Source: Bispira polyomma (Eukaryota). Taken from it: a DNA stretch of 64,000 nt. The notes below the pieces were generated by a model. It was not told the DNA's origin, did no database searches, and saw nothing but the letters and a program-made list of their open reading frames with translations. The stretch spans positions 21,452,001 to 21,516,000 of the forward strand of contig OZ287761.1 of the NCBI GenBank assembly GCA_965649765.1, written 5' to 3'. Numbering within the stretch: the stretch's first letter is position 1; each line of letters opens with the position of its first letter. Position numbers and translations under genes: made by a program. Below are positions 4,699-59,501 of this stretch, in pieces.

Positions 4699-4769
4699 AT
4701 ACACCAATGGATTAGTGGATGAGATAGAGGTGTGGTATGCCAGTAAAAACTACCTGATGCTGGATAAAA
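4699..4769 (+). CDS. Exon 1 (visible): end of a ConA/LamG-like module, YTNGLVDEIEVWYASKNYLMLDK
   Basis: tttacag acceptor and gtgagt donor; peptide parallels YPVVLFDDVQIWKAK at the end of the next exon; phase-1 end matches exon at 19538. Confidence 0.7.
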
Positions 4770-16700: not shown

Positions 16701-19700
16701 CCTATAAAGTCCATAGAAAATAGTCCAGGAAAGTGGGTACCAAAGTAAAATTGTTGTGTTGCTTTGGGTGACTTTGAATTTGGTTAGGTTTTTACATTGT
16801 TTTCAACAGCTTAAGTCATATCACGAGGGTGTCAGATTGAGTGGTGGAAGAAACCAGCGCTGAAGCCACTGTGTAAACCACCGACCCTACAGCAAAGTAC
16901 CTGCACAAACTTTACCCCAAATGAACGAACAAACAAAATTAGCTTCATATTCACTGGCCTCTCACCAATGTAGGTTCAAGTCCTATTTGTTCCTTCATGT
17001 GGCAAAGTTTTGTGAAGTACTTGCTGTACGCCAGTTGTTTACAGTCCTTTAAAACCAGCTTCTTCCAGTATTAAATCTGGCTGTCATGTTGTGACCTGAG
17101 CTGCTGTAAAGCAACTTCTATTGCCCAAATATATTACAAATATAAGTTACTGTTAAGATCCTGTACAGATCGAGTTATTGCTTTTGTGAATGTCTTTTTT
17201 TTTTTTCTTTTTTTTTTTAATATGGATATTTAACATCCACTCTAGTACTTGTTTGGGTTATATTGGGACGGGTAGTTGGAAACGTTTGAGGAAACACTGC
17301 ATACAGTTGATCAAGGTTCTGCACTGAAACCAGTGGCCCACAGTAAGGAACTACCACCTTTCCCACATAGGCATTGACGGGATTCGAACTCACGCCGCCC
17401 AGAGGTGAGAGACCAGTGATTGTGAAGCGCAATGCTTGCTAACCACTAGGCCACCGCGGCCCCTTGTGAATGTCTTAAGAGGCAAACATCTTCTCGGGCA
17501 TTCACAAAATGTCTTAACTTAGTCTTAAGTCCAACACTTTAGTCTTTGATTTTGACCAAAAAGTTTCTGGTGTGAGTCCCAGTGGCAGTAAGAACAGAAG
17601 ATCTTTAATTTTAGGAATAAAAAATACAAACAAGTGTTTTATGCGCATTTTAAACAAACGATGGGGTTGGTGTAATGCACGAAGCAAGAAGGGCTGAGTG
17701 TGTTAATTCATCCCCAGAGATCGTTTAAAATGTGCATAAAACGTGAGTTTAAGCATTTTATTCCTATTCTAAAATGATAAACCCATTATTTTTTATTGAA
17801 ATGAGCCCATGACACCTAAAACTTGTAACTACTACACAGGCGGCTCCATGTTTTGGCTGTTCCGTCATATAACGTATATGACAAAAAAGCTCAGAATTTA
17901 CTCGAGGTAAAAATTTAAATCTAGTATACTTCTATGCTCGATTTAAGCCTAAGACTTGGCCCTGGAGTACTTGTACAAAACAGAGTTCATTTTGCACAGA
18001 TAAAAACAGATGTTTCTGACAGATTTGAGCCTTTACCAGGGCTAAAAGCACAATGACTTGGAGTTAGGCAAGAAAACTAAATAGCTTGTTATTTTAGTTT
18101 AAGGTCTTTTTACATGTCTGTGGTTACGGTAACTTCCAGGAAAGTATATTATCCTGGAACAACAAAAAGAAAAAATGTCAAAACTTTTTTTAATAGTCTG
18201 CTGAGTGTTTTAAGTGCAGATAAGTATACCAAGATATATATGTGTACCTGAGACCTGGTTTGAGCAATAAAGTATTAAGTCACTCACTTCCATGGCAAAA
18301 GAGAGTCCTGAGATTTTCAAAGAGTTCTATATTGCAACAATGATTACAGTATGAGGGTAATATATATATATGTTAATCCATTCCACCTGAGGCCTTTATG
18401 TATATCTGTAATGAAAGATAATTTTTACTTTTAAATTTGTTTTAATCCAACACAACCTTAAATTCTAACATGTTACTTATGTCTAAATTATTCAAATCAT
18501 ATTAACCATATTAAATATATTCTATACTTGCCTAAGTATGTCATAGGTTTTTTATAAAGCCTCCTAAGGATGGCGATCGGGTCACCAAATCTGGAGTTCC
18601 CTGGAACCGTATTCCTGGATCTCGAGCTCAGACTCAACTTAAGTGAAGCCTGTTGGGAAATCCTTTGTACATGGAATAAACCTGTACTTGTGACCATTCA
18701 TTTTAATCAAGCTTTCAGTGCTGAATTCAAATATACAGTCATATTTGAAGTATCTTTACCACACCCAGAGATATTGCGACTTCAGAGACTGAGCTTGAGT
18801 CTGCCTTAAGCTTGATATCTTTCGAGTATACTTCCCTAGGACTCGGAAACATTGTTAAAGAGTTGAGTCAAAATGAGCGTCTTAGAGGATGATTTATATT
18901 TACATAAAACTGCTTCAGTAATGACGAATAATAATAATAATACATGTATTATATATTGAAAAGCCTCAATCACAATCCTTATATCTGTGTTATTGACTGC
19001 TATGTATTTGCTTTTACAAATAAACGTTTCTTTGATATCTGCTTTTTTGCTGCAATTTCTTTCTTTTATTTACAATATTTAAGCCGTTTTGCTACAGTAC
19101 AGATTGCTTTAGCTTTGCTTTTCCTGCAATATTTTTTTTTTTTGAAATTGCACATCAGCGGCTTTGTGTTCGATGGTCTTTATAATAATCACTTAGCACT
19201 ACTCTATATCTGACCCGCTACCTTTAATAACCCTTGCTTCAATACACCCTTGGCCCTATTTTTTACATTGACGGTTGATTTGCCCACATTTACATTTATA
19301 ACCACTATAAACCACTATATAACTATAATTATACCTTTCACACCTGTACCCCCACCTTCACACAGACATCGATTTCATCACCATTTCCATGTACCCGACT
19401 TCTCAGCTTTTTGTACCCTTGCTTCAGCACTCATGGCACCATTTTAATATATTGATATTTTTCCCCACACACCTATAACCACTATATGACCACCATAATG
19501 TTACCTTTCACACATATACCCCCCCATCTTCACACAGACATCGATTTCATCATCATCCCAATGGACGATATCCGTGACGACCGCATCGTGCACCCAGACC
19601 TCCGCATAGACACCTACGGTGGGCCCGTGATCACCAGGGGCGCCATCAATGGAGCCGTCTACCTCAACGGACGGGCCCAGTACGTGGATGGTGGTGAAGG

Positions 19701-22700
19701 GCTTATTTGCAACGGCAACATCGGACAGTGCACCCGCGGACTGACGTTCCGCTACAAGATCCGGCCGCGGGGGTTTGTCAACAACACTTACTACGTCTCC
19801 AGCGGTCCCGTAACGATGTACTACCTCAACGGGAAGATGCACGTCCAGGTACGATCGCCAAATCGTCAGTGGACGACCAGTTTCGACACTTCCACCTATT
19901 TACCAGATGACGCCTGGTCACAATTCGACCTCAGCTGGGAGGACGCGGATGGGCTAAGGATTTTCGTCAACGACCGCCAGGTGGCCTATCAAGCCGAGTC
20001 AGAGCCTTACGACACGGACGATTATGACCCCAAGGCCAGGTTTTACCTGGGGCGGAGGGGCGAGGGAGATGGAGGAGATGGAGATGGGGGTTATCCTGTG
20101 GTACTGTTTGACGACGTCCAGATCTGGAAGGCCAAGAGGGATATCGTGAAAGACAAGTTTCCGGGTAAGAGGGAAAAAAAAACACGGGCGAATAATGACA
20201 GTGGTTATATAACAAAATAAGGCCAATTGTAGGTTAACCTGTGGGGATAAACTGACATCCAAGAGCCACCAGCAGATAAAAAATTGTACTTAAGAAATAT
20301 ATATCGTTCATTATTTTTGTAGTTCTCCTAATTTTGCCAATATGATTTTAAAAATACAGTAAGGAATCCAAAATTCACCACTGTATCAGAAATTCGCCAC
20401 CTGGAAAATGTTGTCTTTTTTGTCGAATTGTAGGTAATATTTAACTGAAAGTTAAGATTTTTATGTCTACTTTGCATTATTTACACTAAATTCCAGTTAT
20501 TTTCCGCCAGTTTTTAATTGATTTGTCTTAAATTTTAGGGGGTGGCGAATTTCAGGTACAGTGGCGAATGTTAGATTCTTTACTCTACAGCAATGGCTGA
20601 GCCTTGTTTGTGATCCCTGAGTGTGAAATCCAAGCAACCAAACTGTTTGTGTATGATAATATTATAAACATGATGCATAATGTGCAAGTATGTATTACTA
20701 GAATACTAATTTGTGTGTGTGTAAATATATAATATATACACCATGGAATGCATCCTGTTACATACCTTGATGTGGTCTTGAGCAAATGACTACTTATCAA
20801 TGTGATGTTAAGGCACAGTTGAATGCATCCTGTTACACACCTTAATGGGGAGCTAATGACTACTTATCAATGTAATTTTAAGGCACAGTTGAAAACCCTT
20901 AAAGTCGATCCTCAAGGGATCAAGAGAAATACCTTTTACTTGAGCAGAAATTCCACTTAAACAGGGGGTAGATTTTTATAAAAGAAAAGATCTTTGTTGG
21001 GGCTGGGGGGAGGGCTAGATGTTTTGTCAACATTAAAAAGAAAAAGCACCTGCAACATACAGTTCTGTTTTAAAAATTGGTTAACAACTGTATTTAACAT
21101 TTGTGTATGAGAGTTTGATTACTAACATATACTTTGCATATTGAAGAATTGTTTTAGTCTATAGTGTTGGGTTAGTTTATATATATCCTTGTTAAATGTT
21201 TTAGTTGCAGGAGCCGCAAAAGCCCGACATATTTCCCTAGTTATGTTAAATTTCTTTTTCATATGGAAAATTTTTAGGTGGCAAATTTCACATCCATTAC
21301 AGCCAGCCTATTGATGGATGTTCAAAAGAGGAGCCTTGCACACAGCTCAGATATGTCTGTTCAGTATTGATCACACAGCAAAAAAAAATATAGAAAATTC
21401 ATTTTTGCCATTTTAACACTGTATTACATATCACTGACAAAAATGCATTCCTTAAGACTTAAGACGTTCCCTATCTGGTGCACTGAATGAGTGCGTTATT
21501 GTACAAAATTAGGCATTCTTTCTTGATAAATAAAAAAAATATACTAAATATATAGAGTAGAACCTCTATTATCCAACCATGCTTGGATCAAGATTATGTT
21601 TGGATAATAGAGAAGTTGATTAAACAGAAGAGAAGACATCTCTGTATAAATCAATAAAGGAAAACATAAATTTGGGAGAGAGTGGAAATGAGTTACTAAA
21701 AATAGAATATTCGGATATTGATAGAAGTTTGGATAACAGAGGTTCTACTGTAGTAGTTTCTCTTTGACGGAGGTTTTTCACAGGTTTATTGTGATCGACA
21801 TTTGTCCAGAAAATTATTGGTTTTAAACAACATTTTTATAATGTTGCCCACTTCATGCATGCCAATATAATAGTATTTAATCCCTTTAATTCATTAATTG
21901 TGTTGTAAATGTCTTCTGTTTCAGCATCATAATGCATATTTTAAATTTTTTCACTGAAAGAGCTATTAAAACCAACGGCAAAATGTGTTATGGTTTATTC
22001 GCATTGATAACAAATGTGTTTTTCTATTCGTAGAATTAGAGTTTAAGAATGAGGTGAAGTTGAACACCTTGGATTTGAAGATTGGTGTAATTTATTAAAA
22101 AAACATACGAATGTTTATGTTATCAACAGATTCTCGATGATCGGAACTGTTTTAGGACCCTGTTCTGATATTCCTTTTAACAATAAAAATTCTTTTGCAT
22201 CTTAGGTTTATAATTACTTTTAAACTACATCAGTCTGTCTAAAATATCAATGAGATGTATCCTCATTATTCTAACAGAAGAACCCACGGTCACTCCGCCC
22301 CCAGTGACCCCCAGACCGACTGTACCACCGGTCAGACCACAAACTAAGTACATCCTGTTAAATGGCAAGTACTGGATCACCTACAACTTCCCCGACCAGG
22401 ACATCTATGACATGTGAGTACAATATAATACAAGTATGAGAGGCCCAAATAATGTGCCCGGAGTAATCACAAAACGTCTAACTGGCGCAAATCTGGGTAC
22501 CCGCGCATTTAGTGTGAACCAATCTTAGAGACCCAGTCTAGCAATATGGCAGCTGATGTAAACCGAATCTATCAAACAAAAATATCTGGGAGAATGTTGA
22601 AAAGGTATAAGGAAAACGCATATTTACTGTAAAAAATAGACCTGAATTATTGTTTTAACAAAGTGAATTAGGATTATAGGCAATAATAACCAGAATACCT

Positions 22701-25700
22701 ACTATGTAATGTGAGTTTTGAAGGCTTTACAAACTGCCGACTACAGGACAATACACTACAGGTGACGACACGGCACTGCACGACAGTACTTTTCATATCA
22801 AACTAGGGCTGTAAGAGTACTTTTTGGTACCTCATTAAAGAATAGAGTAACGAAAATTAGGAAAAGAGTACTCTTCTTTTTTTTTTTGATATCAGAAGTT
22901 TTGTAAATATTGTCATAAAATTGACCTCAAGTGAACACTTAAATAGTAACTTTTAAAGATGAATTATGCAAATTCTGGCTATTTTTATGCTTGAAAGAGT
23001 ACTCTTTGAAGAGTAATGATGAAAGTGACTAAGTTGAAAGTGACATAAAGCCCAAATACATTCAAATTCTTATAGTATAATTTTAGTTTACCTTTTCTCT
23101 TGTTGCCAGTGACAACCCAAGACGTGAGGAGATCCAGTTCCAATTCCGTACTAACCGGACCACAGGGATGCTCTGGTACAGTGGGGATGAGCAGAGGAGT
23201 GCACACCTGGGGCTGAAGGTAAAAAAACCTCTATTATACGAACTGCTGATATATCTGGTAAATAGGTAAAAAAGTCTATTATACAAACTTCTGGTATATC
23301 TGGTAAACAGGTAAAAACCTCTATTATACAAACTTCTGTTATATCTGGTAAACAGGTAAAAACCTCTATTATACAAACTGCTGATATATCTGGTAAACAG
23401 GTAAAAACCTCTATTATACAAACTTCTGGTATATCTGGTAAACAGGTAAAAACCTCTATTATACGAACTGCTGATATATCTGGTAAACAAGTAAAAACCT
23501 CTATTATACAAACTTCTGGTATATCTGGTAAACAGATAAAAACCTCTATTATACAAACTGCTGATATATCTGGTAAACAGGTAAAAACCTCTATTATACA
23601 AATTTCTGGTATATCTGGTAAACAGGTAAAAACCTCTATTATACAAACTGCTGATATATCTGGTAAACAGGTAAAAACCTCTATTATACAAACTGCTGAT
23701 ATATCTGGTAAACAGGTAAAAACCTCTATTATACGAACTTCTGGTATATCAGGTAAACAGGTACAAACCTCTATTATACGAACTTCTGGTATATCAGGTA
23801 AACAGGTAAAAACCTCTATTATACGAACTTCTGTTATATCTGGTAAACGGGTAAAAACTATATATGAACTGCTGGTATATCTGAACACTTCGGGTCTAAA
23901 GGTAACAAAACCTATGTTTTATGAATTGCTGTATATATCTGAACACCTATGGTCTGAAGATAAAAACCTCTATTGAATTAACTTTGAAGATAAAGAGACT
24001 AACACATACTTCGTCTTGATAATAAATTCTGATATAGCAACATAGAACTGTATGATCTAGTACAGTATTGTATTGCTTATTTGCATTTTTCAGCACACCT
24101 TATTGATGCGAGGCATCTTCTAAAGCACAACAACTGAATCAATTTGCAATTCGAGAAGTTGTGCTTTAGAAGATGCCTCGCATCAATAAGACATGTTAAA
24201 TTAATATAATACAATAGAACAATATGATATCAGTATCTTTCTCTCTATTTTCAGAACGGTGACCTGTTGTTTGTGATTGAAGAGAACGGTGAGATTGTGG
24301 ACAGGTTTAGAATCACCCCGTCCAGGCCTCTCACTGACAACGAGTGGCATAATGTGATTATCAAGAGGAACAGGGGACAGGTGAGAGCGTATGAACTCGT
24401 AAAAATATATTAGTTGGTTACATGGGGCTATAGGTTGGATGGTTATACAGTTATTGGCATTACGTGATTATCAAAGAGGAACAGGTGAGAGGATGAACTG
24501 TCGTCTCGCTAGTTTGGTCAATAGTTTACTGATTAATGCAAACCACTAGCTTTCAGCAAGTCTTCTGCTAACTTTTCCCATATACATGCAAGGGGGGCCC
24601 GAGATGTGAACCTGTGACTGCAAAGGTGAGGGATGAGTATGTTACCACTCTACACCATCGAGGCCCTATTATGGCCCTGCCTTCTGTGATTAATTCAAAC
24701 CGCTAAGTTATCTTATTTTTTCTACTGTACAAGCACAGACAACCAGCACCAGTATCTGTCATTTGACCTTAACTTAAAGCTTGTATGTAAGAATGATTTC
24801 ATTAAAATTTGCCCTATTACTGAGAATAAGCGTCTAAATGCTTTCAACCCCAACAGAAAACTTTTGCCTGGAACTGCAGTAATTTCTTTCAGGTAATAGG
24901 TCACAGATAGCTTAATTCACTAAGACACATCACAAAGTAATTCCGGCATTCAATTATAGCTTCAATAATTTCCCTAAATGGGGATGTCTGCTGTACCTAG
25001 CTGTTCCTATTGTGAGCAACTGGAGGGAAAATAATAATATTTTTGCGCATGTCGACTATTAACAGACAGACTCGGGTTCTGGGAGTAACAAATGCCCTCA
25101 ATTGCCAGCTGACAACCTAGGTGTTGAAAGGGTTAAATAGTTTGTCAGCTTGATTACGTAATCGTTGGTATTTCTCAGGTGACATTTGACATTGACGGTA
25201 GACAAAACACCAAGCGTCTGACGAGTGAGGTGATCTTTGTCCCCGGCGACAAGCCTTTCCACCTGGGTGGAAGTTACGGTACTGACAGCATCAAGAGGAA
25301 CTTTGTTGGAAACCTGACAGAGGTTTGTCACTTATGTATAGTTATATACAGTCAAACCCATTTGAGTAGAACTTTCATAACTGGAATTACCTGTTAAGTA
25401 GGAGTTATTTTAAGGTCCCATTACTATACAGTGGAACCCTTAAAGTAGAACTATCTTAAGTACGTTTCCTTTTTATGTGGAGATAATTATGTAGTCACAT
25501 GAAGGCCTTTACTTTTAAATTCCACCCTGTTAACTGGGGAGTGTCAGTCACACTGTGCACCAACGTCTTTTTAAAAAGACAACTCTTGTTTTATTTGATA
25601 CTTTTTACTCTCACTCTCCAGGTTAAGGTCATTACTGGGGGCACAGACATCGACTTGGTCCGCCACTTCCTGTCTGACCCGAGACCCGATTGGATCACTA

Positions 25701-28700
25701 TTAACCAGGGTCAGCTGCCTACCCCGCGACCAGATGAAGTCGGAGTGACCTTCAGAAGTCCTGACGGGTTTATTATACTACCCAGGTACAGTATTTTAGC
25801 CCCCAGCATATACTCATAGGACATGGGTATTGTTTCGCACTCTGGTTGTCCTGATGGATGACCGGGGGCATGTTATTTGAACCCCTTCCCCACCGATGGA
25901 GAGTAATTCCACTATACTGAGGGAGAATACTTTGACACACTTTGATGGCATCACAAATAATGTTTTTTGCAACAACTGATTACATCATTAATGAAAAAAA
26001 AATATTTTTCTTCTATGTTTAAAGGACTGTACCTTATAGACTTTATCCCTCTGTTCAATAATATATTATGTCATTGACTTCTGGCCACAGGGTTCTCCAC
26101 CAAATAAATGCCCCTCCTGATATATAATACTGAGTTGTTGAAAGCTCCATTGAACTGTGCAAATTGATGTTATTTTGTTTTTTATTTAAATTAGGCCCAT
26201 TTTTCATAGAACAATGTTACAGTGTTAGAATTTAGTGATTGTAACTGTCACTTTTTTTCGTCCCCCTCCAGGTGGAGCTTCCTGCGCAGTGGGTCATTGG
26301 AGATGAAGTTCCGTACCCATGAACCTAATGCTCTGATGCTGTACAACGGGGGACAACCGGGCCGCAGCGACTTCATCGCCATAGAGATGTACGATGGGAT
26401 CCCTTACCTGGTGATTAACCTGGGTGAGGAGGTCCACAGATACCCCTTCTCTACAACCAAACTCAATGATGGGCAGGAACATCATCTACAGCTAGAAAGA
26501 ACCGAAAAGTAGGTGGAATCATTCTCTGTCGATATATCTTTTCCTATTAGAATTATATTCCTGGTTGGTTGTCTAGTTGACTGTCTGGTTGGTTTGTTGG
26601 CTGGATGGTTCATTGGTTGGTACCTTGGTAAGTTGCTTTATAATTAAGTGCAGAATGTACAAACTTGTTTATGAAAAAAACACCATTAGTAGGTCCTAAT
26701 TTGCACCTGTATAACGAACTGATCTTTATTCCTCTTTTATACAGTCAAACTAAATGATGGGGCGAGACATTATCTACTCAAGAAGAAGCTTAAAGTTTAA
26801 AAAACTCATAAAATCAGGCATTATATGTAACAAATCAGATGGTAGATTTGAAGTGGTCTTTGTGCAACCACAGACTTTTCCTCACCGGAAATGGATATAA
26901 AGAAGTGTATATTATCTCTACCATTATTTACACAGTCCCTCATTTTGTTTTGTTTTTGTTACACTCTTTCTATAGCAACATCCGTTTGGTCCTGGATGGC
27001 CGCTCCTCACCCTACACCATCCCCGGTAGTTCAAGTAGCCTTGACCTTGGTACCAAGCTCTATATCGGCGGCCATGACGACCCCCGAGTATTGCCATGGC
27101 ACCTGTGGAGCAGGGAGAGCAAGTTCTTTGTAGGCTGTCTGTGGGACGTCAAGGTCAACAACAAACCCTATGACCTGGCCTTCTATGCAAGGTTAGTATA
27201 AAGTCAAGCTCAACACCAAACCCTATGACATGACTTTATATGCAAGAATAGCATAAGGTCAAGGTCAACACCAAACCCTACAACCTTATCTTTTACACAA
27301 GGTGAGTAAAATCAAGGTCAACACCAAACCCCATGACCTGGCCTTTTACACAAGGTGAATATACAGTCAAGGTTAACACCACCCCCCACAACTGTCTCCT
27401 ACCTAAAGTCAGCTACAAAACCTACCACCTGACCTTTGCAAGATCAGTCAAGGTCACTGACAAACCATACGCCCTTTTATGCAGCGTGAGTCAAGACAAG
27501 GTCACATGCATGCTTAGAAATAGGAGGACCTGGGGCTAGATAAAGGCAGATACACAGTTACTTTAATGGCTTAGATGTCACAAATTAAAGTGGCTCTGTC
27601 CTCAGTCATTGGGTCCTATCCACACTTACAGGCGGAAAAATATGGGGACATTGATAAATAGTGTCATCTGCAAGCCTCTATCTTTAGCTTTGCGATACAC
27701 AATGTTTAAAAAACCTTTTGCCCCATGATATCTGTTACTTTGGCCTAGTCAGTGGTTAGTATTCGACTTCAGATCAGAAGGTTTCAGGTTGGATTCTTGC
27801 TGCTGATCTGGAGATTGTACCATCTCCACACAGGTGTATAAATGGTTATTTGGCTGATAATGTTGCTTGGTCTCTGCACTGTATGTGGCAGCATGGCTGC
27901 TTAGGGAGTATGGCTAGTATGAACAACTGGTTGACAGAAGAACCCAGGTTGAGGGTTTAAACCTTACCAGAGCTGATCACTTCACCTTCCACAAATTTGA
28001 ATTGGAAACAGATTACAATTTTAAATAACTTTGTCAATAATGTTGAGCATTAGAGGATGCGTTAATTAGGCGTGTTAGCAATCTATCCTGTCATGTCAGA
28101 CCATAAACATACACACACATTTACATTTACTACAGAGATCAGAACCCACGGTTTGAGAGCATCGTCCCTGGGTGTAGCCCCCAGTCGGAGGAATGTCCCT
28201 CCAAACCCTGCACTCACGGCATGTGTCACGAGACTTGGAGAGGGTACGAGTGTGACTGTACTGATACTCCGTACATGGGAAAAGACTGTGATATCGGTAA
28301 GTACACTCTCATTGGCAAGTATCTCTCGGTGAAAAATCTGACTCCATATTTAAATTCAGTATTGAAAGCTCTATTAAAATGAATGGTCTCAGAAATTGAA
28401 TTTAAAGGTAGACATAACTTCATTTGGCTAGAGTGAACCTAGGCAAAATCTGACTACATATTTAAAGTCACATAATATTCAAGACTCTTTGAAATATTAT
28501 TTATGTGTGTAACTGATACAGAAGCCATCTGATTAATGAAAGAAAATGATAATTATCGAATTTGTAACAACTATGCAGCTTTAAAGAGATTTTCATCGCG
28601 GAATTCAGATTTTGAGATGATTGTGAGTTTAAAAGCTTTGATAAATATGGCCTCTGGATTTTAACTTAGCATACTGAGTTCGGTTGCAGGAAGATACTGT

Positions 28701-31700: not shown

Positions 31701-34700
31701 ACAATATTATGCACGACAATTTACGACAAAAATTTGTTATAATTTGTTTTCCTCAATAAAAATACATAAGAACCTAACTACAACACATTGTAACTTTGGG
31801 AGAGTTTTTTTCAAAATCAAGAATATTTGAAAAAACCGAATTTTGAATGGTAGAGGTTCTCAATGTATGCGTCTATATATTGTTTAATCTTTACAAGGTG
31901 GAGATTACATCACTGCGTACCTGTCCGATGGACACCTGTTCTTTGTTGCCGAGGGCGCACTGACCCGGAAACTGGTGAAGGTCAGCAGTGAGAGGGTGAA
32001 CGACAACAAGTGGCACCAGATCAGGATACGGCCGGATACTCAGTACCAGCCTGTGAGTGATAATTAGAGATGGGACAAGTCAAGTAAGGAATCTAGAATT
32101 CGCCACTCTATCTGAAATTGGTCACCCCTAAAATTTAAGCCAAATCAATAAGAAACTGGCCAAAAATAACTGGAATTTAGGTCAGGAAGCCAGTATAGTC
32201 ACAAAAATCTCAATTTCGACAAATATTACCCGCAATTTTACCAAAAACACAACATTTTACAGGTGGCGAATTTCCAATACAGTGGCAAATTTTAGATTCC
32301 TTACTTTATGAAATCATATTTTTTATGGATGATGATGATATATATATATTTGGTTTTCTGGTTCATTAACAGTAGCAACAATATGACATCAGTATATATA
32401 TATAAGGACAAAATAGAATGTTCATAAAATAGAAGACAGAGGTATTTTTCAGTGGAAAAATAATAATAAATTGTAACTTTAGAGATTGAGGTAAAGGTGA
32501 GAGATTGAGTTTTTAAAGTCACACTGTATTGTGTCAGGGGTCCACGTATACAAAAGTCCGGGAGTCCGAGAACTAATAAAAATCTGAACTACTTTATTGA
32601 ACTTAAAATATATTGGCAAATTTTTATCCCAACTTCAACTAAGACTGCCAAAATGATCTTTAAACAGAAGAAAAGACAGAGATCTCTCATTATTGCGCGC
32701 CTGTTCAGGCAATCCAGCAGACTGCCAACATATTCTGTGAAACATCGACGACTATGTGTCTATATTCTTTTATTTCATCACTCCACAGTACGACCCCATG
32801 AAGCTGGCCTTCATTCTAGACGGCCATGAGGTGCTGGTGGACATTCGTCACTTTGTCGATGACCTTGACCTCACTGACCCCTTGTACATTGGCGGCCTTG
32901 AAGAAGACATGTACCGCACCCTGCCCAACCTCGTCTCCAGCCGCAAGAGCTACTCTGGTTGCCTAGCAACCATGGTCGTCAAGGGAGGACTGGTGGACCT
33001 CTTTAATAACGGCCGTTACAAGAGTCCATTGATCACACAAGGCTGTACTGGTGAGTGTTAAGACAGCAGAACTCTCTAGTGTCAGAACACACGATAGGAG
33101 AGTCAGATCTGCATTCAGGTTGGGATCGTGAGCTTGTAAATACCATTAGTGAGTTTGTAGTTAAGTCTGGGAAACATTCAGGGTTTTTGTAAACAGAGTT
33201 TTTTACCTTATATCCATATGATGTAAATATATTTAAAGTAAACATATTGTTTAAGTAAATTCTGTGCTCCCCTCAGTATGGCTTTTTCCTTTAAAATCTA
33301 CCCTCTTAAATGGGGAAATTCTGGTCAATTTGTCTGGTCTTTTGAGGTTCTAATAAAAACCACCTAAGAGCAACCCCCCAAAGTGGTCTTTATTGACAGG
33401 TGGTCTTCTATAGAGGTTCAATGCCATTAAACATTAATCTTGGGAAATGAAAGTGTTGTCTATATACAGAGGTGGTCTCTCTATAGAGGTGGTCTCTCAA
33501 GCAGGATTGATTGAAAATATTAAGATTTAGAGCCTTTGCAGTCCAATCTCAAGGGAGATCACAAGAAATACTGTACAAAAAAAAATATTTTTACTAGTAA
33601 ATCATTTTAGCTAGTTTTTTGTCAGTGATCTTAATTAGTGAAACAAATTTATTTCCAGTGTAAATTTAAAGTTAAATTTAATCTTTTAACTAAAAATCGG
33701 CGGGTAGTTAAAAATTTGTTCCAGTGAGTTTTCTTAAAGAATTACTACTGTTTTTCCAGTTTAGTATCTACCACTGACAAGTATTTTGGGGAAGATATAA
33801 TTGATAGCTTCTATACTTGCACTTGTATAATGAGTACTTTACCTTTCTATATCTGCAGATGCCACGTCTTACTGTAAAGCGGCCCCCTGCAGTCACTTTG
33901 GCCGCTGTGTGGAGATGCTCAATGGATACCGCTGTGACTGTAACATGACCTCCTTTATAGGGTCAGTCTGTGATGAAGGTGAGTGTAAGCACCCATTGAC
34001 ACGAGAAAAATGGGACTCTAACTTTCACCTCCTGGAACTGCGCTGTTGAACCAATTTTTGTGCAAAATTTGTGCAAAATTTAAAAGCTCCAAAATCCATA
34101 AGGTCCATAAGTCTATAGTATAAAAGCAAGGGTCGTCCTCAAAACAAGGTTTACAGTGCCCTTCAACACTGCTTTCCTCCTTCATTGAAATCTGGCCATT
34201 GTGATATGACCTAAGCTGTTGAAAAGTGACATAAAAACCCAGCTCAACTAAATTTGCAACATCCTACATAGATCCATATTTTTTTCCTGTAATAAGTTGC
34301 CTTTTCTCCTGTACTTTGTTAACTTGTTTAATGATTGATGTTGTGTCCTGTAGTTCCTTATTTCTGTACACAGAAGCCTAGAGGATTACAGATATACGAC
34401 AACAATTTATAATGTGGAAGATCCATATTTCTTCCTACAATAAAGTACCTGTTATCTTGTATTTTTTTGACATATGTTGTACTAGAGTAGAACCCTCTAT
34501 TATCTGACCCTCTATTATCCGACCCTCTATTATCCGACCCTCTATTATCCGATCCTCTATTATCTGACCCTCTCTTATCTGACCCTCTATTATCTGACCC
34601 TCTATTTTCCAAATTTTTAATTTTACGAACTCAATTTCACTTCTCCAAACTTCTATTTCACTCCAAGATGTCTGTAAAATAGAGGTTCTACTGTATTTAT

Positions 34701-37700
34701 TTATTGATTTTGTAGCCTATATTTATTATTTCTGTACACAAAGAGCTACAGAAATATCACTGATGTCAGGCAGGAAATCTATACAGTGAAATGTCCATAT
34801 TTTTTCGATGCATTGCCACGAACGATTAATGCATCGACTTAACAACTAATCGCCTTAGCTTTACTTATTTTTACTATTTAATAATTGATCTTGTATCCTG
34901 TATTTATGAATACAGAGGCAGAAGGCTACAGATATATGAGTGGCGGCAGTCAAGGAATCATGGAGTACCGTTTTGTACCTCCCATTGACACGAGTAGGGA
35001 TGAACTGGCCTTTGGCTTCATGACTTGGCAGCCCAACGGTACTTTGGTACGGGTGGACAGTGGCATATCAGCGGACTACATCGATGCTAGGCTGGTCAGT
35101 TATATCAATACAAAAAATACATTGAAAACCTATCTGGTTTACTCCCGTTATTTCCTCCCTGTTCACTAGTGGGTAAATTGTTTATCGATTTCACCAATAT
35201 TTATTGTTTTGGTCTTTACGTGCCGATATCGATGTGTAATACAAAACACATCAATATCATAATAGACACATATTACACCTTGGGACAACATTTATACAAC
35301 CATTTATAATGATATTTTATGGTTAACACCTTTCGAATAGTGTATGATGACCATTTTATTTCCACTTTTTCTTGTAAACATATTCAGCGGTTCTTACTTC
35401 TGGTTTCATTCGGGCAGATTTTTCGTTTTGCAGATACATTCCAGTTTCTTCACAACTTTCTTTTTATGTTCCGATATTGCCCGATTTTAAAGTAATTTTA
35501 CGTCAGATATCAATTTCCACCAACCCAAATAATTTACCCACTACTATAGAGCCTATTTGCATTTCAAAAAATTCACGGGAGCATTCAAAGTGGTCTTTAA
35601 GTAGGAGTGGACTGACTTTGAGAGTGGTCACTAGTACATGTACATGATTAAACTATTTCCCCCCCTTTCTCTCCCACCAGGTGAATGGCCACGTGGTGAT
35701 GTCGTGGGACATTGGTAATGGCCGTGAGGAGATCAGAGGGGACCAGCGTGGGTATAACGACGGAGACTACCATTACGTCACCTTTGTACGAGATGGCAAA
35801 ACAGCCACGGTCAGGGTGGATGACTACCCCTCTACAACCAAAACCTCAAACGGTAAGCTAATCTAATCTAACTTTTATAGCGGTTATCTCCAAGCTTCTT
35901 TGTAAAACAGATAAGTGAGGAGGCAGTGTCTACATATGCCAAAGCGAATTACAAAGCCAGGTACTACATCAAGCTCCTAGGGGACACGGTAGCCTTGTGG
36001 TTATAATTGTCTTGCTTTAATAACACTGACCTCTCACCTTTTGGGGATCGAATCCCACAAAATTTCCCACTCCTAAAATTTAAGCCAAATCAATAAAAAA
36101 TGGGTGAAAAATCAATGGAATTTAGGTATGTGTTTTGCAAAATAGTCACAAAAATCAGCAAATCTTACTCCACAAATTCAACAAAATAAACACAACATTT
36201 TCTAGGTGGCGAATTTCAGATACAGTGGCGAATTTTCGATTCCTTACTCTCTGGGCAAAAGCAAATTAGAAAGCCAAATTACAAAAGCCAGGGACTACAT
36301 TAAACTCCATGTCATTATATATTAGTGTCTATTTGTTTCAGGTAACAATGTTCTGTTCAGTGATCTAGCTGTCATCAGGGCAGGTGGAACTCGGGATATC
36401 AACAACAACATTGTCAACCCCTTTGACGGCATCATCTCAGGTCTGTACACACGTACTGGTGACCCATACATCCATACTGGGGGCATATCACTTCAATTCT
36501 TAGCATTTTTTTGGGGCCTCAGTCAATCAGATTCTTTGAGAAATATTTTCAGCCAATCAAATAGCTTGAGACAAACATTTAAGAATAAGAATCTTTGTCA
36601 ATACCAGTCCAGATCTGATGACTGATTTTGTGCACAGTTGACTGTAAGTGTTGTTAACAGTGTACCGGTATACCGCATTTTGTTTTGTTTGTACAACTAT
36701 GGCGAGCCCCGCTGTAAACTGCTGTGAATATCATATGTACACACGTGGTGATGACCTATACATATATACTGGGGCCTTATACACAAATATTTTTAGAATC
36801 CAATTCTTGTCTTGGCCTCAATCAGATTGTTTGAAAAAAGATATTTTCAGCCAATCAAATTGCTTGTGACAAAAATTAGGGAGTAAGAATCATTGTGAAT
36901 AGCAGCCTAGATCCAATGACTAATTGTGTGTACACAGTAAATTCTGTATTTAGTTGAATGTCCACTATCCACATGATTTGAATCTAGTTATGGATACAGA
37001 CAACTGATTGGAATTCTAGGAATAAGTAAAATACTTCTAATGTATACTTTTAAATTACACTCTGAAAATATGACAAATATATCAGTTAAAGTAAAAAGGT
37101 AAAAACCCTTTATTTAAATCAAGTAATTTATAATGTGACCCTTCCTTTATCAGATGCCTCGCATCATTAAGTTGCGTTAAAAATTTTAAAAAAATTTCAC
37201 AATACAACACAATATTTCTATTGGGATGTTTTCTCTTTTCTAGGTCTGTTCTTTAACGGGACCCGGTTCATTGACATGGGCGTCATTGACGGTTCACCGG
37301 CCATTGTCACCGGTGGAGACATCATCACAGCCACACATCCATTCAGTGTCCCTCAGTAAGTGTTGTACTATTACCAGTTACCATACAGCAGAAACATCTA
37401 AACAGTGCTACACTTTACTGCCAAAAACTGCTCATCTCTGAGCAGGAGTCAGATTTCCCTTGTCTCCCTCCCAAGTAATAAACCTGGCAGTTGGTGGGTG
37501 TTAAAACAACATCCACTCACTTTCCTGTGGTGCATCTGCTGATTAAAGTCTAAACATGTAATGTATGTGTATTTTCCTTAATGTCCAGTCTTATACAGTA
37601 TAGTGCATGTGTTTGATCACTTTATAACATACACACCATTTTGACGGGGAAAAAATGTTTGGAATAGAATAAACTGTAGTTTTAGTATTTATCTTATTAG

Positions 37701-40700
37701 TAAGTGATCAGCACTAAAGGTTGTATCATCAACAATAGTCATACATTGTATTTAAATTCCTATGATAGAGTACAACCTCTAGTATCCAAACATATTGGGA
37801 GAGCAAGAACTTGCTTGGATAATAAATATGACAAACATGTAATTATAGTAAAAAGGAATACCCTTTATTTAAAAAAATTTTATTTTGTTTTATACAGAAA
37901 TGCTTTTTCTATTTTATACACCTTTCAGTATCCTGCTGAAACTATTCTCCAAATAAACTAAAGCTAAAACTTATACTCAACTCAAATTTGGAATCACTAT
38001 ATTTCTGATTAAAATTTACCCTGTTAAGTAGAACAAATTTCGTTACGGTCTCTTCAGATTTAACTTATAACACAGGGTTAATACACTGTAATTTATTTCT
38101 AGGCCCAAACCGCCCAGTGAACAGCCGCCCGTAGTGACACAACCCCCTGGCGACGGTGTGACGCCAAAGGTCGACCCGCCCATAGTTGATCCGCCTGTAG
38201 TGGATCCACCCGTGGACATCCCCGTACCCCCGGATCATGGTGGGGGTGGGGTAGCTTGGGCGCCCGTCTATGCGGGGCCTGGGGCTCCGGGAGGAGGAAA
38301 TGGAGGCGGTGGAGGGGGAACAGGAGGCGGAAACGGAGGCGGAAATGAGGGAGACCCTATAATAATCATCGGCGGGGATGGAGATGGACGTCAGCCGGAC
38401 GGAATCGCCGTGGCGATGGATCCAGGAGGCGGTGGGGTGGCTCTGTGGGACGGCGGTCAGCCCGGATCGGTGCCGGGGTCGGTTGGTGGGCCTGTGGTAG
38501 GAGCTCAGGTAGGGGCCCCTATAGTAGGAGGAGAGGGAGGATCTAGGGCCGCTGGAGTGGCGGGGGCTTTTATAGGAGTGCTGGTGGCGGCCAGTTCTAT
38601 CATGTGGGCCGTGTACAAGTTTAAGCCGGGTCTCCTTGGAGGAGCAGGAGCGGGAGCGGGCAAAGGAGGGGGTGGAGCCATGAATATCTCATCGCCGTCG
38701 AGTTACAAACTTCTCAAACCCGCGGCTGGTGGTGGCGGAGGTGGCCCGGGCGTGGGCTATACCTACACTGCCGCAGGTGGTGGTAGCGTGGTCGCCATGG
38801 ATATGAATGGCGCACCGCCCAGAGGTGGAGGTGCCTACGCCAAATCCATGTCCTCCTTCGGCACCCAGACGATGCTCGCAGGCGGTGCCTTAAACTCCAA
38901 CGAGTTTGCCAGCACATCCGGCGCTTCGATGAGCGGGATCGCAGGCGTCATCGCTGGCGGTGGGGCTGTTACCAGGGCAACCCAGACGAACCTGTCGGCG
39001 TTCAGCGGAGCTGGAGGCTACGGCTTGGCCAATGCAAATACATCATTATCTGCCAGCTCCATGAACGGCTATTCACATTTCGGGGACAACGCTGCTGCCA
39101 CCTCTACCCTGATGAAGGAATCCTACCACAAGTCCTACTACGAGTCGACCGTGGACGGGAACGTCTACTCGGCGGGCCGTGTAACTTCCGTCGCCAAGGA
39201 CCCAGCACCTGTGGGCTTGACGGAGATCGCGACCCAGACAGTGAGCAATGCGGGTACGCAGACGTTCGACGCAGACGAGGCCGCTTCGGTGACAGGATTA
39301 GGAGGAGGAGGAATGTACTCATCGGGTGGAAGTTACGTGGAGACCGGCTCTCAATATGGCGGTGGTGGTGCTTACAGCCAGACTCTGCCCCACGGTGGAG
39401 GGGGAGGAGGCATGCAACAGCAGAGTTACTACAAGGAGTCGGTATCTACCGTCAACCAGATGAATACTCTACCAGTCTTGCGTCAACAGCCGCAGCTACC
39501 ACCGCAACAACAGCTGCAGCCTGCATATCCACAGGTAGGGGGGTGTTCAGAGAATCTGTACTTAAAAATGGTTTATTATTTATTTGTTGTATAAGCGTTG
39601 TCCTAAGGTGAAATAGGTGTCGTGTATAACATTGATATACTGTTAGTATTTCACACCGATATTCGCACCCAAAAGTCCAAATAATAAATTCAGTGAGAAA
39701 CCTCTATGATCTGAAACATGTTGGGAGAGCAATATTTTGTTCAGATAATAGAATGTCTGTAAAATTGAAGAGGCATTTTAGTTTCAGGGTTTCAGAAAAA
39801 GGCTCAAAACACATTTGTATCAGCTCTCTTTTCCACCTTATCATGCCATCTGATGGTCACGACTGAATCTCCGATCACGAACCTTTACCGTCTACCGGAC
39901 TATGCTCTTGCACACTGACTAGGATATGCGTCATCGATTGTGGCGCTATAAAAGTAAAAACATTAATATTATCAACCAATAGGAAAATGAAAATTTGGGA
40001 AAGTGAAACTGTGTTCGTAAAATCGAATATTTGTATCATGGAGTTCTGCATTGTTAAAAAATTTACCTACTATATGTACTGTACGTGGTTAACGCACTAG
40101 CCTCTCACCTCTAGGGATGTAGGTTCAAAACTTTGCCACAGCTTTATGTGGGAAAGTTGGCAGTTACTTGCTGATGCACTGCTTTCCACCGACCAGTAAA
40201 GTAATGTGTTGTAAGCGACATTAAAACCCCAATCAATCAATCAATGTACCTATTGTTACACCCTTATTTTCCACAGGCAGCGTATGCTGATTCCGGCTAC
40301 CGTGCTGCGATGCAGAACCTGCACATGAATGCCACCAACCTGTTTGGTGCTCAGAGCGCCGAGAACCAGGCCGCGGGATTGATGATGACTTCAGAGGAGA
40401 TACGGGTGGACTGCGCCATGTTGACACAGAATGGGCGCTACGTGGTGACGGGATCCATCTACGGACCCCCACAGATCTGGGACATGAAGGTAAGAAGGGC
40501 ATGTCCAAACCAACACCAATCAGCAGCAGTTAATGTTATCCAAACGATCTCTAGCTCAAACTGAAAGTACACAAGATCTCGGGCTTGAATATGGTCAAGT
40601 TAAAATCTGGCTTCATACACTCCAACCCATTCATGTAGAACTCTGATAAGTAGAATTACCTCTTACTTAAAAGTTATTCTAAAGTCTGATTGCTATATTT

Positions 40701-43700
40701 TGAATTAAAAATTTACTCTGTTAAGTAGGATTCCTGTTGAATAGAACAAATTTTTATGGTCCCTTCAGATTCGACTTAACAGGATGCCACTGTATTTGAA
40801 TTCAGTGAACGGTAACGGAGAACTGTATGTGTATATAACATGTGCAAGGGTCTACATGTAGTCTCCATTGAAGTTAAGTCTGGGTTTAAGTCTCTTTGGA
40901 GAATAACCCGCCCCAGATTCCTATTTTCAAAGCATTTAGTTAAAAAATTTTTAAACACTTCTTTGGAAAATGTAGACTCAATAAGTAATACGTTAGTATG
41001 AATTAATACATTCACCCTTATCAAACTGGGTACCCTGGTCTATTTTTGATGAATTGCTGTATAGTCCCTGGCAGTCGGGGGCCATTCTTTAATTTTGATG
41101 AATGACTATATTTTCTCATCACAGATGAATTACTGTATTTTCTCATCACAGATGAATTACTGTATTTTCTCATCACAGATGAATTACTATATTTTCTCAT
41201 CACAGATGAATTACTGTATTTTCTCATCACAGATGAATTACTGTATTTTCTCATCACAGATGAATTACTGTATTTTCTCTTCACAGATGAATTACTATAT
41301 TTTCTCATCACAGATGAATTACTATATTTTCTCATCACAGATGAATTACTGTATTTTCCATCACAGACCCATGTGCCCATATGTAATTTGTTCTAATGAA
41401 TTACTGTATTCTCTCTTACAGACGGGTGCCCTTGTGCGTCTGATGGAGGGAGATGACATGAGTTCCACTGACCTTCACCTTGCCTGTAATGACAGCCTCC
41501 TGGTCGGTCAAGTGGCGGAGATGACCCAGGTCAACCAGCGGGACATGGCCCGAGGCATTCACCACAGGAAGCTACAGGTGAGTAGTAGCTTTTGTGTGTG
41601 TCTTTGGTCTGGTTTTTAATTGGAATATTTAACTTCCACTTTAGTACTGTTTAGGTTATATTGGGACGGGTAGTTGGAAACGCTGGAGGAAACACTGCAT
41701 ATAGTTGATCAAGGTTCTGCAGTGAAACCAGCGGCCCACAGTGTTGAACTACCACCTTTCCCACATAGGCATCGACGGGAGTCAAACTCACGCTGCCCAG
41801 AGGTGAGAGACCAGTGATTGTGAAGCGCAATGCTTGCTAACCACTAGGCCACTGCGGCCCCGTCTTTGGTCTGATAATCAGTGTTTAATTGATGTACAAA
41901 CAAATTATACCAGAAGAGTAATTTCTGACACTGAATAATGTAATATGGGCGTATTTTCAATATACAGTTTTATAGTAGGGCGAGGTCTTAAACAAGACTG
42001 TAAAACTTGTACAAACCCCCATTTTTTTGTGCTCCAGTTTATGTCTTACTATCAAGGGTGTGTGTTATAACTGTGTAAAATTTTTATGAAGGAATTTGAT
42101 TGGCTGGTCAAATTGCCACAAAGCAAATTGATTAGCTAAAAATACGAAAATTCTAAAAAATGCCCACGCTGATAGGTTTTCTTGCAGTCGTACTTTCACT
42201 GTTTTCTCTCTCCCTGTATTTTTTTTCACCCCTCAGATCTGGGACTTTGACACGGGCACCCCTCTGTACATTACGTCTTTAGCTCATAGTTTTCTCCTAG
42301 GTATTCTCACCGTTTTCTTTCTGCCTGTATTTTTCAGATCTGGGACTGTCCCCCACCTCCTTCTCCCAGCTGGACATGGCCCACAGCTCATAGTTTTCTC
42401 CCAGTCATTCTCTCTGTTCTCTTTCTGCCTTTATTTTTCAGATCTGGGACTGTCCCCCCTCTCCCGGACATGGCCCACAGCTCATAGTTTTCTCCCAGTC
42501 ATTCTCTGTGTATATGGCCCCAGGTATTCTCACTGTGTTGTGTCTTTCTATATTTTTCCTTAGATCTGGGACTTTGACACGGGCGCCCCACTGGACATGC
42601 ACAACAGCGAGTCCTGCACGGCCAGCGCCATGATGAACGACGGTACGCGCATCGTGCTGGGCCGCACAGAGAAGTACGGCAACAGCACCACCATTGTGAT
42701 CTGGGACCTGCTGGGCAACCAGCCTCTCCGCCGGATCCACTACGAGGGCTCCATAGGGTTCGCCGACTACATCAGCATGCTGAAACTGTCGCTGGACAAC
42801 CGCTACGTGATCGCCGGCTTCCAGAACTCCTACGACGGAAAGGCCAACTACCTGATCTTCGACCTCACAGTGGACGACTACACGAGCCACGACCCCAAGA
42901 TTCTATCGCTGGACGCTGTCGCCGAATGCTCCGCCATCTTGGATAACCACGAGGTCGTCACGGGCACGAGGGCCGGTCAACTGACCATCTGGAGCGCCCG
43001 CACGGGCAAGGCCCTGCGTCAACTGGTGTCCCCGGCCCAGCTACCGCTTGGAGGAGGAGCGGCTTCCTTAGGTAGGCCCATGGCGAGGTCGGCCCACACG
43101 CGAGAGGTAAAGGCCGTGGAGCTGTCACATGATCGCCGACTGCTGGTGTCGGTGTCTGCGGACCACACGGTGAAGGTGTGGAACCTGGAGAATGAGCGGC
43201 TGATGTTTACACTGAAGGGACACACTGATGAGGTAAGGGTTATTGGAGAAAGTGTGCACATGTGGTAAAGAATGGATTGTAGGGCGGCAATTAGTAGCCA
43301 TTTTTGTACAAAAATAGCCAGAATTTGAATGATTTTTTGTTTAAAGTTACAAAAAAATATTCATTTGAGGTCAATGTTATGACAATATTTGAAAAACTGT
43401 GAATAGCAAATAAAAAAAAAGTACTCTTTTTCCTAATTGTGTACTCTGAATAGTTCATCGCTCTATTCTTTAATCAGTACTCGATTAATCTTTACAGCTT
43501 TAATGGATTGCACATAATTATTGCTGTGTAAGATAATTTCATTTTTGTTCCTGACGATTTTCAATCCTAGTTCGTCAATCTTTGACTAAAAATACTTTCT
43601 TTAGCAGAAAAATAGCCAATAATAAAAATTTATTTCAGTGAATCTCTCAAAAGTTTTTTTCAAGTACCTGCTTCAAAATTACCGGCCTCTCCACCAAATG

Positions 43701-53674: not shown

Positions 53675-54210
53675 ATCAGGGGTTTGATCCTCGCTGCAGG
53701 CTTAGAGATTGTACCCTTGGACGAGGTACTTCACACAAGGTTGTCTCTCTCCACCCAGGTGGGGCCGTGGTGGCCTAGTGGTTAGCAAGCATTGCGCTTC
53801 ACAATCACTGGTCTCTCACCTCTGGGCGGCGTGAGTTCGAATCCCGTCGATGCCTATGTGGAAAAGGTGGTAGTTCCTTACAGTGGGCCGCTGGTTTTAG
53901 TGCAGAACCTTGACCGACTGTATCCAGTGTTTACTCCAGCGTTTCCAACTACCCGTCCCAATATAACCTACTAAAAGGTACTAGAGTGGACGTTAAATAT
54001 CCAAATTCAAACTCTCCACCCAGGTGGATAAATAGGTACCTGGCTGCTAGTGGCTGTTAGTCTCTGCGCCGTATGTGACAGCATGTCTAGTATGCTCTCT
54101 TAGGCAGCTGAGAGTGAACAATTGTTTAACAAGTGTAACCCAGACTGGGGGTGTAAACTGTGTGCAACGCTTTGAGCTGCCAAGAGGTAGCGCTATATTA
54201 ATGCAAATTT
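53675..54210 (+). mobile_element. Older SINE family 2 (CORE-like centre, LINE-type tail), interrupted by the family 1 SINE
   Basis: CCCTTGGACGAGGTACTTCAC...CTCCACCCAGGT|GGATAAATAGGTACC...CGCTTTGAG...GCGCTATATTAATGC; related copy at ~27741..27963. Confidence 0.7.
53761..54011 (+). mobile_element. tRNA-derived SINE, family 1, nested in an older SINE
   Basis: 14-bp TSD CTCTCCACCCAGGT at 53747-53760 and 54012-54025. Confidence 0.92.
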
Positions 54211-58121: not shown

Positions 58122-58261
58122 GCTAGCTTGTCAACAGGGAAAGGTAATTAGTGGTGAAGGAGGAATTCCTTAACTTTTGTAGATCATCTTCATTAACATC
58201 CTTCCCACACAATTTGAGATAGTTATCTCTCCTATTCAAACACAAATTCCCTGTCAATGTC

Positions 58262-59484: not shown

Positions 59485-59501
59485 TATTAATTTTCTTATA
59501 T

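Follow-up and report, generated by a model that had tools for sequence, protein, structure and literature searches.

Concentration of tandem splice-junction copies at exon ends in the genome of Bispira polyomma

A stretch of 64,000 nucleotides from Bispira polyomma (GenBank assembly GCA_965649765.1, contig OZ287761.1, positions 21,452,001 to 21,516,000 of the forward strand), here called the window, contains a large gene for a protein with laminin-G (LamG), EGF and WD40 domains. Copies of the exon-intron junction are found on the intron side of 12 of its 50 exon boundaries, and these are exactly the junctions listed in the initial annotation of the window. It is important to ask whether such copies, here called echoes, are a peculiarity of this gene or a property of the genome. 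A further question is whether they are made by a mutational process that targets exon edges, or are simply those duplications touching an exon that selection has allowed to survive.

Comparison with an unselected sample of genes provides the answer to the first question. Tandem duplications are concentrated at exon ends, 4-8 fold, and the pattern is genome-wide and strongly non-random. As to the second, a probability of about one half is assigned to a genome-wide process aimed at exons. In such a process the birth and amplification of short tandem duplications would proceed several-fold faster at exon ends than inside introns, and the duplications would leave intact decoys at one junction in six and occupy up to about a tenth of the intron DNA.

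Prevalence of echoes and their excess over intron interiors

The sample consists of dynein heavy chain, myosin and DEAH helicase genes located by family search, in 31 regions chosen regardless of repeats. Introns were annotated with a purpose-written spliced protein aligner; in the window gene, all 10 of its confident introns agreed with the hand model. The gene models are homology-based and their frames are free of stop codons. The discovery set contains 347 introns from 19 regions and the held-out set 71 introns from 12 regions. The 24 of 371 confident introns that belong to two near-identical myosin paralogues were left out, as were all non-confident introns, a filter that would hide splice-site shifts.

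Echoes are present at 102 of 648 exon ends in the discovery set (49/324 donors and 53/324 acceptors), compared with 6 of 3054 in a null set taken from the introns of other genes. The corresponding values for the held-out set are 27/135 and 2/598. The pooled prevalence is 129 of 783 exon ends, approximately one in six, against a null of about 0.2-0.3%; by family it amounts to 95/632 in dyneins, 20/98 in myosins and 14/53 in helicases. At least one echo occurs in 17 of the 19 discovery regions and in 9 of the 12 held-out regions. A separate tally of junctions in the discovery set gave 131 of 694 with a boundary-spanning copy. The signal falls from 48/646 to 0/456 as the query is shifted from 20 to 100 bases into the exon. 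The echo rate varies among genes (p=0.007) and increases with intron length (rho 0.61).

Diagonal scanning of the discovery set gave a median unit of 52 bp for donors and 63 bp for acceptors, with a median of 3-4 copies. Between the junctions and their farthest echoes lie 40,626 of 356,199 intron bases, which is an upper figure. Only three of the 347 discovery introns are shorter than 200 nt, the shortest being 128 nt.

Several features of individual regions were also observed. Two dynein regions (G000 C6:20.5 Mb and C5:30.3 Mb) have echoes at 0/30 and 0/42 junctions, respectively. A DEAH helicase stretch, L145, carries junction arrays in several consecutive introns, with units of 52, 39 and 25 bp; its contigs have roughly half the depth seen for the window gene. 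Near-whole copies of an exon in the adjacent intron were found for 8 of 811 dynein, myosin and helicase exons and could be pseudo-exons or alternative exons. One intron in these regions contains copies of both flanking exons.

The excess over intron interiors was assessed with each array counted once and with uniform placement on unmasked, non-array intron as the expectation. Junction-spanning or junction-derived events account for 62 of 117, where 17.1 are expected. When derived arrays are classed as interior, 53 of 131 events span a junction directly (19.1 expected), and in the held-out set 24 of 33 are junction events (3.8 expected). Equal density at random intron positions, the outcome that the initial annotation had named as contrary to its proposal, was not observed. 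The outer edges of duplications have a density of 1.57 per kb at exon positions -60 to -5, 0.82 at the intron edge, 0.25 at intron positions 30 to 250 and 0.17 deeper inside. The far-interior null is too large, because masking misses repeat families, and the near-field ratio is the safer figure. This ratio of exon-end to near-intron (30 to 250) density is 6.3 (gene-bootstrap 3.9-10.4); it is 3.9 (1.9-9.2) for two-copy events and 7.6 (4.6-13.2) for multi-copy arrays. Multi-copy arrays make up 41 of 56 junction events and 14 of 31 other events (p=0.012).

An excess of this kind could in principle arise by retention only. Duplications would then be born evenly, but a copy anchored in an exon could neither decay nor be deleted, and intron edges would turn over more slowly than the transposon-filled interiors. 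Masked repeats do make up 9% of the sequence at intron edges and 45% in the deep interior, the purely intronic events are also raised at the edge (the 0.82 per kb given above), and the two-copy enrichment has a lower bound of 1.9. However, a frozen copy, judging from the 1:2 divergence described below, would extend the detectable life of a duplication only about 1.3-2 fold, which is less than the ratio of 6.3 overall and of 7.6 for arrays. The excess also persists against near-edge intron alone and is no weaker among the most similar copies. Young two-copy events (at least 92% similar) lie at junctions in 7 of 19 cases, where 2.7 are expected, and in 4 of 4 cases (0.7 expected) in a second count. 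In a set obtained by BLAST, 30 of 35 tandem non-repeat events of at least 90% similarity are at junctions (5.6 expected), a stronger excess. If the two-copy excess is at its lower bound, retention could go far to explain it; the arrays it could not explain, and as the whole explanation it is unlikely. The young two-copy events favor the mutational process proposed in the initial annotation, subject to the same lower bound.

Survival, decay and origin of the copies

The units themselves indicate that selection acts on new duplications. None of the 26 directly junction-spanning acceptor units has fewer than 15 intron bases, where 6.8 are expected (p=0.0003), and the held-out set agrees with 0 of 10 (2.7 expected, p=0.03). 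Donor units contain less intron than acceptor units (p=0.013). A search for exon-internal tandem duplications found none in 97,905 coding bases. The acceptor limit and the lack of exon-internal cases fit a filter under which a duplication would be tolerated only if its exon-nearest copy keeps the whole splice signal. To this extent the survival of junction-spanning duplications alone, as suggested in the initial annotation, appears to be correct; taken as the full account, it predicts no excess, yet the excess is 4-8 fold.

Once formed, the copies appear to evolve freely. Mismatches between the nearest copy and the real sequence are found at 84 of 1112 positions in the exon part (7.6%) and at 164 of 1027 in the free intron part (16.0%). 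A ratio of about 1:2, as found here, would be expected with constraint on the real exon copy alone and an unconstrained echo. The GT or AG is changed in 5 of 96 cases and the neighboring exon bases in 17 of 240 (p=0.63); these dinucleotides are neither purged nor protected. In 60 direct events, 52 of the nearest echo sites are intact, and 46 of these 52 would shift the frame or meet a stop codon if used.

These values bear on the idea that positive selection keeps the echoes, with extra splice signals or exonic enhancers aiding exon recognition or tuning expression through splicing coupled to nonsense-mediated decay (NMD). The GT or AG is kept in 109 of 131 nearest copies, a count inflated by anchoring, and many echoes score level with the real site. 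However, GT and AG decay at the rate of neighboring bases, the exon parts of echoes diverge neutrally, the presence of echoes does not go with weaker real sites (p=0.15 and 0.45) and unit length is random modulo 3 (41/36/44). Positive selection is thus very improbable, and the copies are likely to be neutral by-products of exon-seeded duplication and of expansion as variable number tandem repeats (VNTRs).

All copies are direct, with inverted copies at 0 of 648 exon ends. Templating by RNA or complementary DNA was rejected: 122 of 131 copies continue as the genomic neighbor instead of carrying an exon-exon junction, 6 continue weakly as spliced and 3 are ties. Fifteen apparent copies of spliced junctions were found on inspection to retain intron bases. 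A polarity of the arrays towards the exon seemed real (similarity falls with distance in 34 and rises in 14; 24 vs 12), but it was lost in a like-for-like comparison (17 vs 18, p=0.92) and corresponds to ordinary edge decay.

The turnover of the arrays can be followed in three myosin-III-like paralogues (L098-L106; G000 C11, C8 and C13), which lie on different contigs, extend over more than 20 kb and are mostly 98-99% identical outside the arrays. Three arrays have 11/23/16, 13/8/12 and 3/4/3 copies in the three paralogues. Since the 11, 23 and 16 units occur in sequences of such identity, copy number changes far faster than bases. The same intron is 709, 1345 and 971 bases long in the paralogues with 11, 23 and 16 units, and the intron growth anticipated in the initial annotation is accordingly seen between paralogues. 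No example was found of the turnover of splice sites, anticipated together with it, or of the gain of introns. No intron or exon gain was seen in the homology-based models, in which the copies stay intronic and the filter for confident introns would hide shifted sites. Intron gain of the type described by Rogers, from a duplicated exonic AG|GT segment, gave a signal in 2 of 415 introns, both of which are by eye decayed acceptor echoes in short introns.

The explanation preferred here, at somewhat less than an even chance, combines exon-biased birth and expansion with the survival filter, the likeliest cause being out-of-register repair or exchange anchored in the conserved exon. Short duplications would start in exons more often than in introns, with a birth bias of perhaps 2-4 fold. 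Only those whose exon-nearest copy holds the whole splice signal would survive, and the surviving units would then grow and shrink as VNTRs, an expansion that may add further exon bias. The conserved exon would serve as the homology anchor, with slippage where the variable intron begins. The exon-nearest site would be spliced by exon definition, and the stray use of echoes would mostly be cleared by NMD.

A lesion linked to chromatin or transcription might instead bias the birth of duplications to exons, followed by the same filter and VNTR turnover. Exon-positioned nucleosomes with lagging-strand flaps, repair of methylated CpG, and R-loops or polymerase pausing at splice sites are the candidates. 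Such lesions would give the same excess and geometry as the preferred explanation. Echo-bearing exon ends are CpG-poorer (0.0167 vs 0.0224 per base, p=0.0006). The difference may reflect more methylation, but CpG-poor echoes may only remain detectable longer, and a gene-level CpG correlation is absent (rho 0.03). The housekeeping-type DEAH helicases have more echoes than the dyneins (14/53 vs 95/632, p=0.048), an excess for which intron length is a confounder. The nine cleaner breakpoints have overlaps of -2 to 12 nt, which are also in line with lesions; microhomology is readable in only about nine events, a number too small for a judgement. However, a fixed fork direction should produce a donor-acceptor bias inside genes, and this is absent (p=0.22), and GC-rich intron windows are not hot (1.27 vs 0.9-1.5 events per 100 windows). 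A lesion of this kind is a doubtful cause. The causes are ranked with homology-anchored repair first, chromatin- or transcription-linked lesions second and retention alone third.

Fork-direction bias, GC attraction, weak-site reinforcement and frame selection were each tried as explanations and gave nothing.

Several observations weigh against an exon-aimed process or against its homology-anchored form. Four dynein or myosin regions have no echo (0/26, 0/30, 0/12 and 0/10), and the gene models come from the purpose-written aligner and not from RNA. Repeat masking was derived from a 1.3-Mb sample and misses families, such as a high-copy element left unmasked in L145. The two-copy lower bound of 1.9 touches the roughly two-fold effect that retention could give, and a floor for donor units at 6 nt is not significant (3/45 below it vs 6.0 expected). 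No test singles out the homology-anchor step itself, and this molecular cause is one that we infer. The free intron part diverges no more than two-fold, giving no sign of an allelic template, and the arrays lack polarity towards the exon in the like-for-like comparison. The window gene looks homozygous in the sequenced sample, with long unbranched contigs, while another locus is at about half that contig depth.

Relation to known junction repeats

Repeats of this kind are known from amphioxus as mirage minisatellites. The available parts of two reports (PMC3087553, PMC3902484) describe them in Adh3, the globins BflGb6/BflGb9, troponin C and PGBD5, with units of 10-160 bp, and the former calls their mechanism unclear. 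The present repeats share the defining features. Their units are direct, minisatellite-sized tandems of overlapping size that span the exon-intron boundary at either the 5' or the 3' end; the GT or AG is often kept, the frame is intact, and copy number and length vary, here between paralogues. Mirages are further characterized by somatic mosaicism of repeat number and by normal splicing free of aberrant mRNA; on splicing, the open frame and the alignment to the homologue with exon-nearest sites give an indirect indication only. Unlike the single-gene cephalochordate cases, as far as the available text describes them, the repeats here come from a lophotrochozoan genome with a measured prevalence (129/783), an excess over intron interiors and a splice-signal floor.

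In the human F7 gene, the first unit of a 37-bp VNTR in IVS7 spans the exon-intron border, and its downstream donors are functional but silent, the most upstream one being chosen (PMC1557585, available part). There too the unit crosses the donor border. However, that case concerns one locus and donors only, while acceptor echoes are as common here (53 vs 49) and need the last AG to win. In potato, a new intron arose by duplication of an intron end plus an exon start, according to the part of PMC4974935 available. Segments of this kind are duplicated here and paralogues likewise differ in repeat number, but neither a new intron nor a new exon was found in the homology-based models, and the copies remain intronic.

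The kind of repeat is already known, and what is new is a measured property of a lophotrochozoan genome and not a new category. No genome-wide measure of mirages was found in the literature covered, from which subscription journals are mostly absent, and the available portion of PMC12783039 does not describe mirages. Mirages were so far anecdotal, with four lancelet genes and one human VNTR as the cases; in the present genome they are common and measurably concentrated at the ends of exons, and the size of the splice signal has shaped them. A single genome of this type makes several matters testable: the exon bias of duplication mutations in invertebrates, the way in which the spliceosome prefers the acceptor nearest the exon to upstream copies of equal or greater strength, and the share of intron length owed to junction arrays. 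Gene predictors and mappers of short reads can also be misled by mirages. If the process is indeed aimed at exons, the genome would offer natural experiments by the thousand, in each of which the last AG or the first GT wins over copies of equal or greater strength.

The window gene and its echoes

The hand model of the window gene has 26 exons and a single frame of 2173 residues, and all its introns are GT-AG, the shortest being 299 nt. The assembly has 1.035 Gb in 75 contigs. Among named sequences, a myosin exon has its best hits in annelids, and DHX35 in an annelid, molluscs and a nemertean (66-69%), which points to a probable lophotrochozoan. The 5' end of the gene was not located in the window: the first exon of the model begins mid-frame at an acceptor, and a search with two homologues found no additional upstream exons. 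Pfam searches on single exons gave laminin-G and WD40, with EGF below threshold. The predicted protein has a neurexin-like LamG/EGF ectodomain linked through a Gly-rich stretch and a likely transmembrane helix, recognized by eye, to a C-terminal WD40 propeller. The layout of LamG, EGF and WD40 is common to P0001 (64% identity in the WD40 exon) and to the bivalve protein P0029. To our knowledge, this combination belongs to no named family. In a comparison of P0001 with the model that uses exon-nearest splice sites, 16 junctions are aligned on both sides. At 11 of them, among which are those of exons 11, 12, 18, 24 and 25, the two agree in length; the remaining five are off by 1-4 residues. The positions of the echoes and of control duplications are collected in Table 1.

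Table 1. Positions, within the window, of the host gene, its junction echoes and other tandem duplications
Feature	Position	Strand	Remarks
Host gene, LamG/EGF/WD40	4699..44205	+	26-exon hand model and homologues P0001, P0029
Exon 2 acceptor echo	19230..19400	+	real site 19538; offset ~170-185; AG intact
Exon 4 donor array	23219..23983	+	~14 units of 45 bp and two distal 58-bp units keeping 19 exon bases
Exon 5 end and donor echo	24455..24500	+	offset ~104-110; GT intact; score equal to real donor
Exon 8 end echo, old	26728..26796	+	offset 288
Exon 9 donor array	27192..27504	+	55-bp unit (44 exon and 11 intron bases); 5 decaying echoes
Exon 11 donor array	28966..29236	+	79-80-bp unit; 3 echoes
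Exon 12 acceptor echo	29258..29294	+	offset 66; AG lost
Exon 12 end, two echoes	29504..29621	+	donor decayed
Intron 13 duplication, 38 bp	30182..30254	+	begins 10 bases into intron; without exon part
Exon 14 acceptor, two echoes	30854..31357	+	offsets 513 and 141; AG intact; MITE-like end within units
Exon 18 acceptor, two decayed echoes	34327..34806	+	offsets 550 and 181
Intron 20 start duplication, ~292 bp	36444..36934	+
Exon 24 acceptor array	40998..41421	+	ten 27-bp polypyrimidine-AG units and distal copies keeping exon bases
Exon 25 acceptor, three echoes	42162..42511	+	offsets 334, 223 and 119; each scores above real site
Interior intronic duplication (control), 70 bp	20746..20893	+
Further interior control duplications	6576-6871, 14291-14613, 30254-30458, 34492-34610

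An intron copy of the exon-terminal 40 nt was found at 10 of the 50 junctions, namely acceptors 2, 12, 14, 18 and 25 and donors 5, 8, 9, 11 and 12. Their scores range from 26 to 68, while among 1152 non-adjacent controls the 99th percentile is 24 and the highest score 28. At donor 4 and acceptor 24 the exon bases are kept only in distal copies, and with these two the total is 12. The units are unrelated in sequence and different in size, which supports the independent events proposed in the initial annotation; the intron-start duplications noted there after exons 13 and 20 are real and essentially intronic. Junction-spanning events make up 10 of 24 in this gene (4.4 expected, p=0.005), 9 of 17 without intron 1 (5.3 expected, p=0.04) and 2 of 7 by a strict ungapped method (0.8 expected, p=0.2). 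The window gene, which was chosen for its pattern, is by itself modest evidence of an excess; it is the genome sample that establishes one.

The exon 4 and exon 24 arrays show a similar history. In both, the far end keeps an exon-containing unit (58 and ~46 bp, respectively), of which a shorter derivative (45 and 27 bp) has expanded. Banks of potential decoy splice sites, as foreseen in the initial annotation, can be read in the sequence. With a scoring matrix trained on 286 introns of the same genome, echo donors reach 8.9 at exon 4, against 6.9 for the real site, with nine of them above it, and 16.3 against 9.0 at exon 9; the echo acceptors of exon 25 score 6.9-9.6 against 4.5. The use of echo sites scoring at least as high as the real ones would shift the frame or meet a stop codon, except at exon 24. 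There, at window positions 41125-41421, the frame is kept by nine echo acceptors; four of these were translated, and they are stop-free and would add 27-99 residues to the WD40 region.

Insertion and excision of miniature inverted-repeat transposable elements (MITEs) beside exons, or errors of assembly, could also create copies. Units at exons 4, 14 and 18 do contain, or lie close to, MITE-like ends. However, in the gene sample an interspersed repeat is present in 5 of 60 direct junction units, compared with 17 of 51 interior units, and 3 of 131 junctions with echoes and 13 of the 563 others have a MITE-end motif nearby, as judged from one end motif and cross-region repeats. MITE ends, which the initial annotation had considered as a cause, are not supported by these counts. 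As to assembly errors, the units in the window gene are 5-30% diverged, and contigs built from the reads of three DNA runs span 24171-25411 (24311 onward in one run), 25958-28374, 29126-30283 and 31152-32138 with 0-3 differences. The runs represent two samples of one study, perhaps including the assembled individual. Among the contig pieces listed, the echoes of exons 5, 8, 9, 12 and 13 and one of those at exon 14 are spanned, but not those of exons 2, 4, 18, 24 and 25; the artefact suspected in the initial annotation is thus removed for the former group. MITEs or assembly errors as the general source of the copies are hardly credible.

Some other repeats were noted in the window by eye. Copies of a high-copy tRNA-like short interspersed element lie at 17230-17470, 41620-41860 and 53770-54000, and contig depth is very high at 41408-42068. 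The control duplication at 30254-30458 is a 47-bp array with a B-box-like motif. Retroelement remnants with a resemblance to reverse transcriptase, recognized by eye only, occupy the minus strand at 56000-60100.

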